Part shown: positions 1 to 49,758 of the stretch, piece after piece
Position numbering within the stretch: position 1 is the first letter of the stretch
How the letters are laid out: the number at the start of each line of letters is the position of its first letter
NCBI GenBank assembly: GCA_013415865.1
Contig: CP058896.1
Location: 971,957-1,035,956, forward strand
DNA length: 64,000 nucleotides
From: Methanomassiliicoccales archaeon
GTDB taxonomy: Archaea; Thermoplasmatota; Thermoplasmata; Methanomassiliicoccales; UBA472
Direction of reading: 5' to 3'
Translations under genes and position numbers: made by a program
Notes under the pieces: generated by a model
What the model was told of the DNA's origin: nothing
Database searches by the model: none
Seen by the model: only the letters and a program-made list of their open reading frames with translations

Positions 1-862
1 TTGCAGGCGGTATGCCAGATGTCTGGTTGTCGAAATATGTGGTGACGTGGTACTGGAGCAGCTCCCACAGGTCCTCGACTATCAGCTGTGGGGCGCCAGC
101 ATCACGGTTCTCACGAAGGCGCTGATTGATCCTCAGCACATCGACGAGCTTGTGGGTGAGGTCATCCTCAGACCTGTCGCTCGACTCCAGTGTGATCGAT
201 GGTCGGACGGTCACGGGGGGAACTGGGAGCGCTGTGAGCACCATCCACTCAGGACGGCAGGACTGGGGGTCGATGCCTAGCGGCACCAGGTCCTCAGCTG
301 GTATCCTCTCCAACCTCTCCCTGACCTCCTTCGGGGTCAGCTTATGACCGTCCTCTCGGAAGGTGGTCGGCTTGTCCAATGTTATCTTGAGCTGTTCCTT
401 TCCGCAATGAGGGCATATCTGTTTCTGTGCGTCCTTGGCCGTGTCCTTGGAGAGCTCGCGTATGTCGGTCGTGTCCCCGCCCAGCTCCTCGAACTGTTCC
501 ATCTTCGACCTGAAGCCCTTGACCTCCTCCTCGTTGAGCATCAGGCGGCCGCAGCTCTTGCAGGTGGCCTGCAACAGCTTCTTAATCTCCTTGACATAGC
601 CCACGTGAATGACGGGCATGGCAAGGTCTATGCTGCCAAAGTGGCCGGGGCATTCGTCCACCTTGTGCCCGCAGGTCTTGCACCTGAGGCCCGGTTCGAT
701 GACCCCGAGGTGAGGGTCCATCAGGCCCATCTCTATCGGGAAACCGTCATCGTCATAGGTGTCGGCCGTTATTATCTTTGCAGCGGACATCTTGCGTATC
801 TCATCAGGGGACAGGCAGGCGAACTTTATCGACCCTATCCTCTTGGAAACCCCTCTCTTCAT
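1..862 (-). CDS. rpoA1: DNA-directed RNA polymerase subunit A' (N-terminal part; gene runs off the left edge of the window)
   Basis: Absent from the ORF track because there is no stop inside the window. The reverse-strand ATG at 862 overlaps the rpoB stop (ATGA). My hand translation is [89 protein letters not shown]..., the conserved zinc/clamp N-terminus of archaeal RpoA'. I checked the frame codon by codon over positions 2..541 and translated about 100 codons downstream of the ATG at 862, without finding a stop. Gene order is the canonical rpoH-rpoB-rpoA1. Confidence 0.9.
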
Positions 863-3800
863 CGCAAATCCTCCAGCTGAAGGCGCATGGCGACCCCAAG
901 CGATAGCAGCTCATCGAGGAGCAGTTTGAACGCATAGGACGTCTGCACCAGGTGCACGTTCGTGTTGTTTCCGCATACAGGGCAGCGGAGCGCCCCTCTT
1001 CGGTCCAATATCGCTATATGGCCGCAGTTGGGGTTGCCGCATACATATTGATAGGTACCATCGGACTCGTCGAGAAGCCGGTCCTTTATGACCATGGCGG
1101 CACCATGGCCTATCAGGCAGTCACGCTCCATCTCACCGAACCTGAGACCGCCCTGTCTGGAGCGGCCTTCTGTCGGTTGCCTCGTGAGTATCTGCACAGG
1201 CCCGCGGGACCTGACGTGCATCTTCCCTGAGACCATGTGATGGAGCTTCTGGTAATAGATCACGCCCATGAATATGTCGGCCTCTATCTTCCTTCCTGTC
1301 TGGCCATCGTACATGACCTCTCTTCCGGAGTGCATGAAGCCGGCCCTGACCAAGGACTCCCTGATCGCCTCCTCCTTCTCTCCGCTGAACGGGGTGCCAT
1401 CGATGGTCCTCGCCTCCGCACAGCCGACCTTTCCACCGATCATCTCAAGTATGTGCGCCACGGTCATACGGGACGGTATACCGTGCGGGTTGACGACCAG
1501 GTCGGGAGTGAGCCCTTCTGCTGTAAAGGGCATGTCCTCTGCAGGTTGGATCAGACCGACGACCCCTTTCTGCCCATGCCTTGAGGCGAACTTGTCGCCC
1601 AGCTCTGGAATGCGCTCGTCCCTCACCTTCACCTTGACGAGCCTGGAGCCGTTCTCGGACTCGGTCAGCATGACCGAGTCGACCCATCCGGTCTCGCCGC
1701 CGCGGCAGGTGACCGATGTCTCCCTGCGCTTCTGAACGGAAAGGAAGTCACCGACATCCTCCTCAAGGAACCTCGGCGGCGAGGTCTTCCCTATCAGCAC
1801 ATCGCCGGCATTGACCGCTATCTCAGGTGAGATCAGACCGTCGTCAGGGTCAAGGTTGACATATGACTGGTCCTGCCTTGCGCCACGGACGTCCGGCTGG
1901 GGGATCTCGAAATGGTCCTCCTGTCCCCCTGGGTATCTGCGTTCCTCGGCCCTGTATGTTCTCATGAATGTGGACCTGCCGAGGCCGCGCTCGACGCTCG
2001 CCTTGTTGAGGATCAATGCGTCCTCCATGTTGAAACCATGATAGGACAGGACGGCCACGACAAAGTTCTGCCCTGCGGGCCTCTTGTTGAACGCAACGAA
2101 GTCCATCGTCTTCGTCTGGACCAACGGCTTCTGCGGATAATGCATGATGTGCCCACGGGTGTCCGGCCTCATACGGTAGTTGGAGGCGGCCAGGCCCAAC
2201 GATTGCTTCGCCATCCCTGCCCCCATGGTGACACGCGGTGACGAGTTATGCTCTGGGTATGGCACCAGTCCGGAGCAGACCCCGAGTATGCACATCGGAT
2301 CTACCTCCATGTGGGTGTGCTCCTTGGTGATCAAAAGCTTGGATGAGATCATCCCTCCGCAATGCCTGCATTTGAGCTGGGCATCCTTGTCCGCCGTGCC
2401 TGGGTTCATCCAATCAAGGTCCATAGGTGATAATGCACGCCCACAATGGTCACATCTCTCAGGGACCTCATACGGAGATACGGCGATGAACGCGTCCTCT
2501 TCCTCCTCCGCATCGATCCATTCTATGACGCCCTCGCGGACGAGGTCGTTCCAGCGGAGCTTGCCCTCGCGGATCTCCTCAATATGCCTCCTGGTAAGGG
2601 CGATCTTCCCATCATTGACAACGATGAGGCTCCTCCGGAGACGCCCCTCATCGCAGTTGATTATGACCTCGTCCATCTCCTCATCATAACGGACGTTTAT
2701 CTCATGTGAGAGGAGCCCTGACCTGCGCCTCTGGCGCATCTCGTTGATGAGGTACTTTGCCCGGTCATGGACCCCCTTCAGGTCCCCATTTACATAGACC
2801 CGGGTGCCCGCCTTCTGCTGGCCTCTCACCTCTTTTACCCCAAGGTCCTTCAGCAGGTATGTGACGTCCTCCTCACGGAACCCTTCTGAGACGTCGATGA
2901 TAAGCGCGGCATTCTTGACCAGACCGCAGTTCTGCCCCTCGGGGGTCTCGTTGGGGCATAGACGGCCCCACTGGGTGGGATGTAGGTCACGCGCCTCGAA
3001 GTGTGGCTGGCTCCTGGTCAAGGAAGACGTAATACGCCTGAGGTGGGAGAGCGTGGACATGTTCGAGGTCCTGTCCAGCAGCTGGCTCACACCTGCACGA
3101 CCACCGACCCAATTGCCGGTCGCCAGGGCGTGCAGGAGACGGTGTGACAAAAGGTCTGGCCTGATTGCGCTCCCTATCCGAAGGTCCTTCTTCCTTGCAT
3201 AGGACCTCTCCAGCTGGTACTTCAGGTCTTTCATGAGGTTTGTGAAGGCGACGCGGAAGAGGTCCTCCATCAGGTCGCCTGCCAGCTTCAGCCTCTTGTT
3301 GGCATAATGGTCCTTGTCATCCTCGTTCCTCATGTTCAATGAAAGCTCAAGCACGGACCTTGCGATGCGGCCGAGGAATATCGCCTTCTTCATGCGGTCA
3401 TCGGGCGTATCGCCAAGGTGCGGGAGCAATGAGCGGTCGATGATGGACTCGACCTTCTTGACGCGGTATTCCTTTGCCTGCCCGGTAGCGAACTTGCGTT
3501 CCAGGTAGGCGATGGCGTCGTTCGTGGTGAAAATACCGTTGGGGGGGTAGACCTTCTTATCATGGATCTCCTCGATGTTAGCGTAAACGATGTTGCTCAT
3601 CCTCGGATCGGACGCGATGGCCTCGAATATCTCCTGGTCGTTCTCCATGCCTAAAGCCTTCATCAGTGCGACGAGGGGTATCTGGCCAGATGCCGCCGGG
3701 ACGGTGACCATAAGCACCCCATCCCGCTTCTTCTCGACAAGCGTCAGGGCTCGGTGCCCTTCCTTCTGCGAGAACACCTTAGCTACTTCCAGCTTCGTGC

Positions 3801-4458
3801 CATAGCGCTCGTTGAACTCCACCATGACACGGTTAGGCGCGAGGTCCTCGAGGGTGATAAGAACACGCTCCGTACCTCCGATGATGAAATAACCGCCTGG
3901 GTCCATCGGGTCCTCGCCCTTTTTCTGAAGGGTCCTGTTATATTCCTCCTCTGTCAGCTCCCGCTCCTCTTCAAGGTTCTCTTTATAAAGGTTGCACTTT
4001 TTGCTCTTGACCATGATCGGGAGGTCGCCTATGTGGACCGTCTCCGACTCCTTCTCTATCCCATCCTCTATAACCGTGAACTCGAGAAAGATCGGGGCCA
4101 GGTAGTTGAGGTTCCTCAACCTGGCCTCCATCGGGGTCAGCTCATGGACGTAACCATTGGCCTCCCGGGTCTCAGGGAGCTTGACATGGATCGTAGGCTT
4201 GGCGCTCTGGTCGATCGCTCCCGTCTTCTCATCCCTCTTCCTACCGACGCGGATCTCGACGATCCTTCCGTCCGTCTTGTCCTTGTCCAATCTTATGATG
4301 CCCCTGTCAAGGTCCTCAGCGGACACACGAAGGTTGTCAACGATCTTCTGCATCCTGCTGTTAGGATTGTCCATTGTGGACAGGAAGTCATTGAAGCTGG
4401 ATATATGATGGTTGACGATGCTCCTGTCCTTAAAATAGAGTTCGACTAGATCTCGCAA
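859..4458 (-). CDS. rpoB: DNA-directed RNA polymerase subunit B, unsplit (1199 aa)
   Basis: ORF track. Conserved Rpb2/RpoB blocks are present: [74 protein letters not shown], and the C-terminal CxxC..CxxC clamp zinc site. The only usable start is TTG at 4458, because an in-frame TAA lies directly upstream and the conserved N-terminus begins at once. Confidence 0.97.
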
Positions 4459-4463
4459 TTAAT

Positions 4464-4727
4464 TCACCCTCTGACCAAACGATAGGCGACCGCTACCTCC
4501 GCGGTCTTGCTCTTGCGGGTTATCTGGATGATAGACCCCTCCTTGATGTCTGTATGACTGATCTTCTCGAGGACCTTGATGCAGGCGTCGTTCTTCCTAA
4601 TCTTTGGAAGCTGATCCTTGGAGATCTTGAGCTTCGCTAGGACGGCCTCGGCCTCTTCATCCGATAACAAACGATGCTCGGGCACGAGATTGTGCTCTAA
4701 TACGTTGAACTGTGGCGTTTCGACCAA
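4464..4727 (-). CDS. rpoH: DNA-directed RNA polymerase subunit H (Rpb5-like)
   Basis: ORF track (87 aa) with the typical RpoH core (LVPEHRLLSDEEAEAVLAKLKISKDQLPKI...ITRKS...YRLV). It lies immediately upstream of rpoB. The start is TTG at 4727, preceded by a strong GAGGTGAT Shine-Dalgarno 5-6 nt upstream. Confidence 0.9.
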   Translation of the reverse strand: MVETPQFNVLEHNLVPEHRLLSDEEAEAVLAKLKISKDQLPKIRKNDACIKVLEKISHTDIKEGSIIQITRKSKTAEVAVAYRLVRG

Positions 4728-4847
4728 AAAATCACCTCGTCAATGACCCGCGACCTGTTTTCATCCTATAAGGTATAGATATTAATAGGCATCGGTGTCG
4801 GATTATGTTCTCCTGTTCGACTCCCATATTCCATTCACCTACCCAAG

Positions 4848-4981
4848 CGGGCCCGCGGGGATTTTCGACGCCACGGAGTTACCGTGAAACGATTCGAACC
4901 CCGGACCACCTGGTTAAAAGCCAGATGCTCTTTCTAGGGACCGCTGTTGCCAACGGTCCTACCTAGCTGAGCTACGGGCCC
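4848..4981 (-). tRNA. tRNA-Lys (anticodon UUU) with two predicted introns (about 4931..4959 in the D-loop, about 4861..4891 in the T-loop)
   Basis: The reverse complement reads GGGCCCG TA GCTC AGCTAGGTA [29 nt] GAGC A TCTGG CTTTTAA CCAGG TGGTC CGGGG TTCGAAT [31 nt] CCCCG CGGGCCC G. Removing the two inserts gives a complete 74-nt cloverleaf. Intron 1 shows a bulge-helix-bulge (CTAG/CTAG helix, GTA and AAA bulges). Splice junctions are ambiguous by 1 nt because of repeated bases. Confidence 0.8.
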
Positions 4982-5280
4982 TTTTGGATGTGTGCGCCGG
5001 CGCTGCGCCGCCGAGCATAAATGCTGCCCTTATTTAAGTGTTCGCCAAGTAATCCTTTCTTCCGACGCCGGACGGATAAACTATTTCATCTATTGTGAAT
5101 GGGAATTGTCACATGCCCAGTTCTTACCCAATCTTTATATTTCCTTTCGAGGATGGTCTTTTTAGACCATACAGTCAGGGCCCTGTGACCGCCCATTCCA
5201 AGTTCATTTATGTTCTCTTTGACCTAGGCTGAAATTTTTATATAGGGAGCCTAATCTCGCTACCCTCGCAGGTGCGATAC

Positions 5281-5448
5281 ATGCAGAATGAAAAGATTTG
5301 CAGTTCATGCGGCATCAGGTTGACCGGGACCGGTATTACATTCTTCAAATGCCCTGGTTGTGGGCAGGTAGAGGTCGGACGATGCTACAATTGCCGCGAC
5401 CAGAGCGTCAAATACGTTTGCCCTAGATGCGGGTTCACAGGACCATAA
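5281..5448 (+). CDS. Small zinc-ribbon protein (55 aa, four CxxC pairs), the class found upstream of aEF-1beta in archaea
   Basis: Below the ORF-track length cutoff. ATG at 5281, TAA at 5446. Translation: MQNEKICSSCGIRLTGTGITFFKCPGCGQVEVGRCYNCRDQSVKYVCPRCGFTGP. A TATA-like tttttatata lies about 40 nt upstream, and the gene ends 10 nt before the EF-1beta start. Confidence 0.75.
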   Translation: MQNEKICSSCGIRLTGTGITFFKCPGCGQVEVGRCYNCRDQSVKYVCPRCGFTGP

Positions 5449-47726: not shown

Positions 47727-48713
47727 ATGGACAAGAAATTCCTATTGTTGAGGCCCTTGGCCGTTTGGATGATATTTGCTGGACTGCTCACCCTGATAAC
47801 TACGGTGGCTGTCACCTTCATCTTCGGGGTCCTCAGCTCTATTGTGGGTTTCATATCGCTCCTGTTCCTTGTCTTCCTCGCGGCCTATGAGATGGCGACC
47901 TTCCGTTCCATCTGGATAGCCCAGGTGGGGGAATGGGCCAACATAATCAAGGCCTTGGGCGTGAGCGTGGTCGTCAGGGCGGTCTTATTGTCTTTGACCT
48001 TCTCAGCATACGGCGATGGCTTCACCGGGAGCGACCGGGTGCTCCTCGATGCGCTCTTCCTTCTCAACGTCGCTTCGATCCTGATAGAGGCTGGAGGATT
48101 GGCATTCATATTCATGAAGAAACAATACTTCCTCCCTTCCCAAGAGGAGATAGATGCGGTCATGCGCCGCCTCAGGGCGGTTGGCACTACCACGGTCGCC
48201 GAATGCCCTACCTGCAGACAGTTGGTCGAAGCGGATTGGCGCTGCTGTCCCACCTGCGGGACTGGCCTCCCGAAGTTCTGTGCGTCCTGCAAGGCCGAGG
48301 TAGGGGGCGAAGATGTAAAATGCCCCAAGTGCGGGGCAGATGTCGTTCCGACAGAGGCCATCGAGAGCCTCATCAGGACGATGAAGGAGACGGCCGAACA
48401 GCCGGCCATGCCGGAAACGAGGTCGGTCCGTTACGCGAGATATGCCGAGGCGCTGCTGAAGGGAGGCCGTGTGGAGGAGGCGATCGAGGCCTACAGGCAG
48501 GCCATCCACTACACCAAGTTCGTAAGGAAACAGACGAACTTCCTCGTCAAGATGGCCACCATCTACAAGAACACTGGAAAGCAGAAGGAGGCCGCCGAGC
48601 TGTTGAATGCGGCGATCGAGCTTGACTCTGAGGACATCGCAGGTGCCAGAAAGGCATTGGAGGACCTTATGGCCCCTGTTGCCGGGGACGGGACGAAGAC
48701 CGTCAAGGCCTGA
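47727..48713 (+). CDS. Membrane protein with cytoplasmic double zinc ribbon and TPR-like C-terminus
   Basis: ORF track 47718..48713 (GTG). I prefer ATG 47727 with a GAGGTG 7 nt upstream. It has about 4 TM helices, then CPTCRQ...CCPTCG and CASCKA...CPKCG, then a helical repeat tail. Confidence 0.6.
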   Translation: MDKKFLLLRPLAVWMIFAGLLTLITTVAVTFIFGVLSSIVGFISLLFLVFLAAYEMATFRSIWIAQVGEWANIIKALGVSVVVRAVLLSLTFSAYGDGFTGSDRVLLDALFLLNVASILIEAGGLAFIFMKKQYFLPSQEEIDAVMRRLRAVGTTTVAECPTCRQLVEADWRCCPTCGTGLPKFCASCKAEVGGEDVKCPKCGADVVPTEAIESLIRTMKETAEQPAMPETRSVRYARYAEALLKGGRVEEAIEAYRQAIHYTKFVRKQTNFLVKMATIYKNTGKQKEAAELLNAAIELDSEDIAGARKALEDLMAPVAGDGTKTVKA

Positions 48714-49758
48714 CCCGCTTCAGCTTTGCATATTGCACCCTGTCTTCTCCAACCCGCCCGAAAAGTACCTCTTTTTTGACCCCGTGGGCCAGACGGATGG
48801 CCCTCGATACCTCGGCCCAGATGGTCACATAGTCCTCAGGTACCGCGTGAACAAGATATTTCGAGTGGTGATTTCCTGGATCGCCCTCGTAGACGCGGAA
48901 ATGGGTCCCATACTTGAACCCTGTCTTTACCACCAGGCCTCTGGACCTTAGGTCCGTGAAGGCCTTTAACCTCATATCGAAATCTGGCTGCACTGCCCTG
49001 GCCCTCTTGTTGAACGCTATCTCCCTGATGTTCCTACCAGACCTGCTGGAACGGACGGTGAGCCTTCCCAAGGACTGAAGATGGGCGGCCTCTATCAACG
49101 AGAGCTGGAGGAATCTTCCGACCTTCTTTCCATAGAACCCCTCCTTTATTAGGGCGTCCGCCTCGGCCTCGTCGATGACGAGCACGCTGTCCTCTACCAG
49201 AATCCCCTTTGCGTCCTCGATCATCGGTTCTTTCTCAAGCTCCCCATGAGGGTCGGCCCTTTCCGCCTCATAATACGTTATGTCGCCCTCCTCGTCGACG
49301 ACGGCCAGAAGCAGCTCCTTCCTTGTCCGTTCGGATATTTCTGCCTGCGCTAACATATCCACGATGCTAAACGAGGATCTTTCAGACACTGCGAGCACCC
49401 ACGCCTTTGTTTGGGATGTCGTCGGGGTCCCGCCCCTTGGGAATATCCTGAAATCGAAATCCCCCCCATCAAGCTTGACGATATACCCCCGCTGTCGGAG
49501 GTCCCGATAGACCAGGAAGCGCGTGTGGAAATCCTGCCTGCTCCCTACGCCGGCATGGACGAGCTCTTGCAGGCCTATCTCCTTTCCATCTGAGAACACC
49601 TTTAACCGGTCACTTTCTGTAAGATAGATGGCCTCCATTATGTCGAGCTCCAGGCTCCCACCCCGCTGCGGATATCCATAATAACCGCGGTTGTAGATCT
49701 GGCTCGCCTCGGACTGGTCCTCGATGATCACAAAGTCGCCACGGAGTTCGCCTGGCAT
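48703..49758 (-). CDS. endA: tRNA-splicing endonuclease EndA, two-domain (alpha'2 homodimer-type) form
   Basis: ORF track (351 aa). The C-terminal unit keeps the catalytic Tyr/His/Lys context (FRVYEG, HSKYLVHAV, GVKKEV). The N-terminal unit is a degenerate copy (FRIFPRG, KAWVLAV). Confidence 0.85.
   Translation of the reverse strand: MPGELRGDFVIIEDQSEASQIYNRGYYGYPQRGGSLELDIMEAIYLTESDRLKVFSDGKEIGLQELVHAGVGSRQDFHTRFLVYRDLRQRGYIVKLDGGDFDFRIFPRGGTPTTSQTKAWVLAVSERSSFSIVDMLAQAEISERTRKELLLAVVDEEGDITYYEAERADPHGELEKEPMIEDAKGILVEDSVLVIDEAEADALIKEGFYGKKVGRFLQLSLIEAAHLQSLGRLTVRSSRSGRNIREIAFNKRARAVQPDFDMRLKAFTDLRSRGLVVKTGFKYGTHFRVYEGDPGNHHSKYLVHAVPEDYVTIWAEVSRAIRLAHGVKKEVLFGRVGEDRVQYAKLKRVRP

Follow-up and report, generated by a model that had tools for sequence, protein, structure and literature searches.

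A tRNA-Lys(UUU) gene with two predicted introns at positions 20/21 and 59/60 in a Methanomassiliicoccales archaeon, and its orthologs in Thermoplasmata

The tRNA-Lys(UUU) gene and its surroundings

The window, meaning the whole 64-kb stretch of DNA that was analysed, belongs to a Methanomassiliicoccales archaeon of the class Thermoplasmata. On its minus strand, at 4981..4848, it encodes a 134-nt precursor of tRNA-Lys(UUU), matching exactly the transcription of this strand given in the earlier note on the same DNA. When two stretches of 29 nt (4959..4931) and 31 nt (4891..4861) are taken out, the remaining 74 nt, GGGCCCGTAGCTCAGCTAGGTAGAGCATCTGGCTTTTAACCAGGTGGTCCGGGGTTCGAATCCCCGCGGGCCCG, are recognized by ARAGORN as tRNA-Lys(ttt) with a regular cloverleaf whose stems measure 7, 4, 5 and 5 bp, just as the note had drawn it. 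The cutting rule for bulge-helix-bulge (BHB) motifs places the introns at 4960..4932 and 4892..4862 and leaves the 74-nt product unchanged; the one-base shift arises because A/A and AAT repeats sit at the junctions. The features of the locus, together with the gene for the tRNA-splicing endonuclease farther along the window, are listed here with the introns placed by the BHB rule.

4961..4981, minus strand: exon 1, with the 5′ strand of the acceptor stem, U8 and A9, the 5′ strand of the D stem and the D-loop to U20
4932..4960, minus strand: intron 1, 29 nt, position 20/21, in the D-loop
4893..4931, minus strand: exon 2, first part, with A21, the 3′ strand of the D stem and the anticodon arm (UUU at 4918-4916)
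Within 4893..4931, minus strand: exon 2, second part, with the variable loop, the 5′ strand of the T stem and the T-loop to A59
4862..4892, minus strand: intron 2, 31 nt, position 59/60, in the T-loop
4848..4861, minus strand: exon 3, with U60, the 3′ strands of the T stem and the acceptor stem, and discriminator G73
5030..5038, minus strand: BRE/TATA-like promoter element (putative), CTTAAATAA, beginning 57 nt upstream of the mature 5′ end
4464..4727, minus strand: rpoH (Pfam PF01191), the downstream neighbour and synteny anchor
4458..859, minus strand: rpoB, unsplit, downstream of rpoH
Downstream of rpoB, minus strand: N-terminus of rpoA1, the gene running off the window edge
48703..49758, minus strand: EndA, tRNA-splicing endonuclease, 351 aa (Pfam)

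The position of the gene directly ahead of rpoH, rpoB and rpoA1 on the same strand had already been pointed out and is borne out by these coordinates. The assignment of 5030..5038 as a promoter element is putative; every intron-bearing homolog in synteny (L002-L011) has a conserved block reading AAAC(C)TTAAATAAAGGCAGC at this distance. The distance between this element and the mature 5′ end implies a 5′ leader, which would be removed by RNase P. Upstream, in divergent orientation, are genes for a small zinc-finger protein and for aEF-1beta, and a radical-SAM gene. The zinc-finger gene, which is HVO_2753-like, encodes 55 aa at about 5273..5440 on the plus strand (PF07754, 1.9e-14) upstream of aEF-1beta, and is easily overlooked, being shorter than the default 60-aa cut-off for open reading frames. 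Between the 3′ end of the tRNA and the TATA-like box of rpoH lies a block of roughly 45 nt, GGAATATGGGAGTCGAACAGGAGAACATAATCCGACACCGATGC (about 4835..4790, minus strand), which is conserved in L002-L011 and not in the wider family. This block was considered as an RNA element and set aside, its conservation being confined to the near clade and Rfam giving no match.

Standard tools pass over the gene in its unspliced form, as the earlier note had anticipated. ARAGORN makes no call on it, either by default or with introns allowed, and the Rfam tRNA model RF00005 gives no match at its gathering threshold or at E<=10; the sole Rfam match on the unspliced gene, to Pseudomon-groES at 13.7 bits, is spurious. 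A scan of the 64-kb window for other hidden tRNA T-arms found none beyond the known tRNA-Gly. The 3′ end of the gene does not encode CCA, the next bases being CTT. Among its relatives, CCA is encoded in intron-less orthologs (L012 399-475, L015 and L016; …GCCCGCCA), in contrast to the intron-bearing genes (…GCCCGCTT; window 4848..4845).

The arrangement of a tRNA-Lys gene with two insertions is not a product of chance, since the precursor reaches a minimum free energy of -69.5 kcal/mol where shuffled sequences give -45.5 +/- 3.8 (z = -6.3), its unconstrained fold contains both intron helices, and orthologs exist that lack the insertions precisely. Self-splicing introns of group I or group II are ruled out by size, as the insertions are 29 and 31 nt long and a catalytic core takes hundreds of nucleotides; neither insertion matches an Rfam intron family.

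Syntenic alleles and the wider ortholog family

The same locus was fetched from relatives with RpoH as the synteny anchor. Eight relatives (L002-L008 and L011; RpoH 68-90% identical) have both insertions in the same two places. In L010 (RpoH 78%) only the D-loop insertion is present and the T arm is uninterrupted (GGGGUUCGAAUCCCC; GGGGTTCGAATCCCCG), and neither intron occurs in L001, L012, L015 and L016 (RpoH 57-66%), whose D arm reads GCTCAGCTAGGTAGAGC and whose junction in place of intron 1 is AGCUAGGU|AGAGC. Intron 2 is precisely absent in L010, L076, L078, L121 and L127. The junctions in the window's gene are fixed by these natural intron-less alleles, which equal the in-silico splice junctions exactly. 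The earlier placement of one intron in the D-loop and one in the T-loop, with none at 37/38, holds. Scores from the Rfam tRNA model follow the number of introns: intron-less orthologs reach 73.4 and 74.9 bits, the one-intron L010 gene 29.9 bits, barely at threshold, and multi-intron genes are missed. The window's spliced product differs from the intron-less orthologs mostly by compensatory changes in stems. Synteny with rpoH is not universal, because L013 and L014 (Methanomethylophilaceae) have no tRNA-Lys within 600 nt upstream of rpoH. As for L001, this is a 56.6-kb contig (CAVGRR010000005.1) deposited as ‘Eggerthellaceae bacterium’ that has an archaeal rpoH and an archaeal tRNA-Lys; it looks archaeal and mis-binned, and its RpoH is Methanomassiliicoccales-like.

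Folding and alignment of the syntenic genes agree on the structure of the precursor. Both intron helices, with their flanking bulges, appear in the unconstrained minimum-energy fold of every homolog. In the alignment of the 11 syntenic genes, the columns of exon 1 are invariant or nearly so, and 96.8% of cells are paired in the proposed structure, compared with 35-46% when partners are slid. Eight pairs in these genes are changed on both sides, four of them within intron hairpins, and compensatory pairs are found in the hairpins of both introns.

A scan of metagenomes with a D-loop intron signature that is not lysine-specific, GCTCAGCTAGGT N15-45 CTAGAAAGAGC, yielded at least 120 stretches, and all of the matches listed are tRNA-Lys(UUU). 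Together with the syntenic loci, the matches listed make up a set of at least 127 complete genes, at least 109 of them unique. Within this set of listed matches and syntenic loci, 54 unique genes have D-loop and T-loop introns as in the window, 48 have a canonical 37/38 intron in addition to these two, five have the D-loop intron only, and two combine the D-loop intron with one at 37/38. All 109 of the unique orthologs in the set splice in silico to 74 nt, giving 22 distinct products that ARAGORN calls Lys(ttt) without exception, and their exons vary almost wholly by compensatory stem pairs and in the variable loop. The hairpins of the introns vary freely in sequence and length, and the BHB core alone is fixed. 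Among the matches listed, 110 of the 111 loci with enough sequence have rpoH as the gene downstream of the intron-bearing tRNA-Lys, and the RpoH proteins of these loci are 38-100% identical to that of the window; in several three-intron loci, RpoH shares 96% identity or more with proteins labelled ‘Thermoplasmata archaeon’. Since every listed match to the intron 1 signature is the same orthologous tRNA-Lys(UUU), these sequences argue for vertical inheritance in Thermoplasmata with occasional precise loss. Transposition of the intron between different tRNAs is unsupported, given that a pattern without lysine specificity met only tRNA-Lys(UUU) among the matches listed.

The three-intron form can be illustrated by L017 (1279-1443, plus strand), to which L018 is identical, and is also seen in L019, L028, L029, L047 and L111. 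Its introns occupy 20/21, 37/38 (central helix CUUU/AAAG) and 59/60, and when they are taken out of the L017 gene the result is a 74-nt tRNA that is one compensatory pair away from the window's product. The same locus contains an rpoB with an annotated intein-splicing domain (L017 1756-3252, plus strand), 1696 residues long compared with 1199 aa for the RpoB of the window. In many lineages (metagenome loci L019-L138), the gap between the 3′ end of tRNA-Lys and rpoH is 30-70 nt, which leaves little room for a separate rpoH promoter; in those lineages, the tRNA and the RNA polymerase operon may share a transcript.

Intron motifs and the splicing endonuclease

The central helix of intron 1 pairs CUAG (4966-4963) with CUAG (4937-4934) at probabilities of 0.67-0.69, and is flanked by the 5′ bulge GUA (4962-4960) and by the 3′ bulge AAA (4933-4931), beyond which the D stem begins. 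The intron hairpin (4959-4938; 9 bp, one of them G.U, with a GCAA loop) is stacked straight on this helix, so that the motif is the one that had been read from the letters. A14 and G15 oppose the AAA bulge to give a 3x2 internal loop, and thus a relaxed, HBh′-like motif. Cutting after the second nucleotide of the bulge produces AGCUAGGU|AGAGC, which corresponds to position 20/21 and to the L001 allele. A 5-bp register, CUAGG/CCUAG, is preferred in the minimum-energy fold and was rejected, as it would enlarge the D-loop by one base and contradicts the L001 allele. In all 109 unique orthologs among the matches listed and the syntenic loci, the helix adjacent to the bulge in intron 1 has at least 3 bp, and for the 109 unique orthologs among the matches listed its mean length is 5.6 bp, compared with 0.65 bp for shuffles, with 37 distinct stems represented.

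In intron 2, the central helix pairs UUCG (4898-4895) with CGAA (4867-4864), and the T stem is stacked on it. Its bulges are AAU on the 5′ side (4894-4892) and AAU on the 3′ side (4863-4861), its hairpin is CACGG/CCGUG, and its pairing probabilities are 0.87-0.99. An extra U (4868) lies opposite the 5′ bulge and can pair with A58, and the motif is in this respect relaxed in the window's clade. Cutting gives UUCGAA|U, that is, position 59/60 and the L010 allele. The earlier note had correctly sensed a BHB-like motif here; its UCGA/UCGA register does not hold, as the BHB cutting rule, applied to it, would leave a 9-nt T-loop, whereas UUCG/CGAA is the only register that gives a T-loop of 7 nt. 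The 4-bp UUCG/CGAA helix is present in 101 of the 102 T-loop introns of orthologs among the matches listed and the syntenic loci, and in 29 of the orthologs in that set the 59/60 site shows the strict 3-4-3 form together with an adjacent helix. Both introns have a 3-4-3 core and belong to the relaxed HBh′/hBH type, a recognized variant of the BHB motif. Some T-loop introns in the family are much longer, namely those of L085 (164 nt; gene at 780-1093, minus strand), L056 (121 nt; 613-871, minus strand) and L126 (109 nt; 375-628, plus strand). These three are strongly structured (-38 to -43 kcal/mol), Rfam matches none of them at E<=0.1, and their length would leave room for an embedded small RNA.

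The splicing endonuclease that the earlier note had placed in the window is indeed encoded there. EndA contains two copies each of PF02778 and PF01974 (the latter at 2.6e-46) and consists of a structural and a catalytic unit fused in an alpha′2-type architecture. The N-terminal, structural unit is devoid of the catalytic triad and reads FRIF where the catalytic unit has FRVY; in the C-terminal, catalytic unit, the triad Y290, H298 and K329 is invariant in the best 120 of 1,963 homologs. Sequence matches in the PDB are 5x89 (the best, a fused M. kandleri EndA), 2gjw/1r0v and 1a79. The protein aligns over its full length with the fused EndA of M. kandleri and with the alpha′2 EndA of A. fulgidus, which is likewise among its best matches of known structure, and its catalytic unit is collinear with the alpha subunit of M. 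jannaschii, with gaps of at most 2 residues. No CSL/L1, L2 or L3 insertion is found in the catalytic unit, which is gapped where A. pernix has its CSL ‘DVEKPRGADFEGP’, and no common insertion in this unit appears among the best 120 of 1,963 homologs. Those 120 proteins are about 350 aa long, nearly all of them fused, and include EndA of M. luminyensis, Ca. M. intestinalis and Thermoplasmata MAGs.

At the site of the CSL, EndA instead has a short turn, G-K-x-(I/L/V)-G (residues 210-214; window 49129..49117). Its Lys211 is found in 117 of the best 120 of 1,963 homologs, and the equivalent residue is N in M. jannaschii, S in A. fulgidus and T in M. kandleri. Conceivably, Lys211 could be important for the range of substrates, although this is a hypothesis only. 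What the sequences do present is a mismatch between predicted relaxed motifs and an EndA, the sole one within the 64-kb window, that has none of L1, L2 and L3.

Related systems and interpretation

Positions 20/21 and 59/60 are known non-canonical sites of tRNA introns (PMC4090602), and individual examples include the HBh′ intron at 20b/21 in M. kandleri tRNA-Glu and the hBH intron at 59/60 in ARMAN-2 tRNA-Cys (PMC5829648). It is reported that relaxed motifs are removed only where the enzyme is of the (alpha-beta)2 or epsilon2 type and has a specific loop; in vitro, the alpha′2 EndA of A. fulgidus cuts an HBh′ D-loop intron poorly and leaves a 59/60 hBH mini-helix uncut (PMC5829648). [quoted passage not shown]

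The pre-tRNA-Glu(UUC) of M. kandleri (Kaneta et al. 2018, PMC5829648) resembles the window's gene in being euryarchaeal, in having more than one intron and in the essentially identical position of the D-loop intron, and here, too, a relaxed motif on the D-stem side is combined with an EndA that has no specificity loop. EndA of M. kandleri forms a heterotetramer, (alpha-beta)2, and was fused artificially for crystallization, whereas the window's EndA is fused naturally; the second M. kandleri intron is at the canonical 37/38, where the window's gene has none, its own being at 59/60, and the identity of the tRNA differs. The mature M. kandleri tRNA is supported by RNA-seq, unlike that of the window, which is predicted from the sequence. 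The pre-tRNA-Cys(GCA) of ARMAN-2 (Ca. Micrarchaeum acidiphilum) shares position 59/60 and a relaxed BHB (Fujishima et al. 2011, PMC3239211) and supplied the mini-helix studied in PMC5829648, but its EndA is a three-unit epsilon2 enzyme with ASL/L2 and L3, in contrast to the two-unit protein of the window with no such insertions.

In Thermoproteales and Thaumarchaeota, there are genes with two or three BHB introns each, at non-canonical positions that include 20/21 and 59/60 (Sugahara 2008 and Fujishima 2010, cited in PMC4090602; Chan et al. 2021, PMC8450103). Their multi-intron genes evade simple tRNA finders, as the window's gene does. In these archaea EndA is of the (alpha-beta)2 type and has the CSL, and each genome contains many disrupted tRNAs, whereas the window's EndA has no CSL. 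In Thermoproteales, moreover, similar introns recur across different tRNAs, which points to transposition, in contrast to the single orthologous tRNA-Lys(UUU) here, which points to vertical inheritance.

The census made with tRNAscan-SE 2.0 counts 25 non-canonical introns in 144 euryarchaeal genomes (PMC8450103), and in three genomes of Methanomassiliicoccales it lists 13 canonical and six non-canonical introns, and one two-intron gene (PMC8450103, Suppl. Table S7). The description of such introns as unusual for a euryarchaeal genome is right in general, but the Methanomassiliicoccales already stand out in these counts. The census reports three-intron tRNA genes from Thermoproteales only (PMC8450103, Suppl. 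Table S7), compared with 48 unique three-intron orthologs among the matches listed here. It gives counts, without gene identity, positions, motifs or enzyme, and a literature search on tRNA introns in Methanomassiliicoccales or Thermoplasmatota found nothing beyond its table. The introns counted there and the window's locus may belong to the same gene family. What the window holds is a BHB-type multi-intron tRNA gene with introns at known positions, in an order whose introns have been counted and never described. What is new is the identity of the gene, the exact location of its junctions with the supporting evidence, the occurrence across Thermoplasmata of orthologs with zero to three introns, and the mismatch between enzyme and motif.

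The locus is, with high confidence, a functional tRNA-Lys(UUU) gene, probably the organism's only decoder of AAA, whose precursor carries two protein-spliced introns that the EndA of the window would cut. The anatomy of the gene, its junctions, the conservation of its structure, its orthology, and the presence and architecture of EndA are shown directly by the analysis. We infer from the sequences that the gene is transcribed, that the window's EndA cleaves the transcript, that the exons are ligated, and that there is no second gene copy. In the proposed pathway, each intron would fold with flanking exon bases into a relaxed bulge-helix-bulge motif; a dimer of EndA (49758..48703) would cut past the second nucleotide of each 3-nt bulge, and the three exons would be joined by an RtcB-type ligase. 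The ends would be trimmed by RNase P and RNase Z, and CCA would be added post-transcriptionally, as the gene does not encode it. No sequence-specific role is apparent for the introns, because conservation is confined to the BHB core and the hairpin, and they look like old insertions that have been inherited vertically in Thermoplasmata and occasionally lost precisely.

It could instead be supposed, as the earlier note had considered, that a tRNA-Lys gene broken by two insertions is decaying as a pseudogene, with a working copy elsewhere in the genome. Rejection by the standard finders and the imperfect BHB motifs would fit such a gene, and the inspection covered 64 kb of a 1.82-Mb genome. Decay is nevertheless very improbable in view of exons that are near-invariant in the 109 unique orthologs among the matches listed while introns diverge, of compensatory changes in exon and intron helices across more than 100 orthologs, and of insertions whose two sites coincide exactly. 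Conservation also extends to the putative promoter element and to the synteny with rpoH, and a perfect cloverleaf persists across a divergence of RpoH to about 40-50% identity. Still less credible is the idea that the insertions stay in and that a stable, tRNA-like RNA of 134 nt, enlarged by two hairpins, serves a non-decoding function. In its favour, the intron hairpins are stable and structurally conserved. Contact between the D-loop and the T-loop shapes the elbow of a tRNA, however, and the insertions break both loops; the hairpins vary freely in sequence and length around a fixed BHB core, and relatives with zero, one, two or three insertions in the same tRNA body at the same locus point to removable introns.

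A different proposal accepts splicing and holds that the visible EndA is insufficient, so that a second subunit or a paralog with a specificity loop, a helper or a modification encoded outside the window would be needed. The missing L1, L2 and L3 of the window's EndA and the poor performance of loop-less enzymes on comparable substrates in vitro (PMC5829648) speak for it, and for M. kandleri the authors likewise invoke helpers or modifications (PMC5829648). Against it counts, though weakly, the observation that the best 120 of 1,963 EndA homologs are nearly all fused proteins of about 350 aa, in a search that was not aimed at separate alpha and beta subunits. A requirement of this kind seems unlikely, if far from negligible.

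Splicing of both introns by the window's EndA remains the favoured account of the locus. Its broadest extension is put forward tentatively and is on balance doubtful: throughout Thermoplasmata, a loop-less two-unit EndA would be the sole enzyme that removes relaxed 20/21 and 59/60 introns from a tRNA-Lys(UUU) gene that probably has no second copy. If true, this would reveal a further, undescribed route to a broadened range of substrates, with Lys211 in the G-K-x-x-G turn at the CSL site, or reliance on the folded tRNA body, as candidates, and it would weaken the rule that links disrupted tRNA genes to loop insertions in EndA. The orthologs with zero, one, two or three introns in more than 100 lineages would then also document, in nature, how introns were gained and precisely lost under that enzyme.

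For annotation, the consequence is that a genome of this kind, if annotated with ARAGORN and the Rfam tRNA model, both of which overlook the gene, would seem to have no decoder of AAA, and the same would apply to more than 100 related environmental archaea. Like Methanopyrus, the window's locus and its orthologs break the statement that euryarchaeal tRNA genes carry no more than a single, canonical intron, and they put pressure on the requirement of a specificity loop for relaxed motifs. The introns at 20/21 and 59/60 offer a defined pair of natural substrates for tests of the enzyme, and one gene at one chromosomal position with zero to three introns across a class is an unusually clean set for dating the gain and precise loss of introns.
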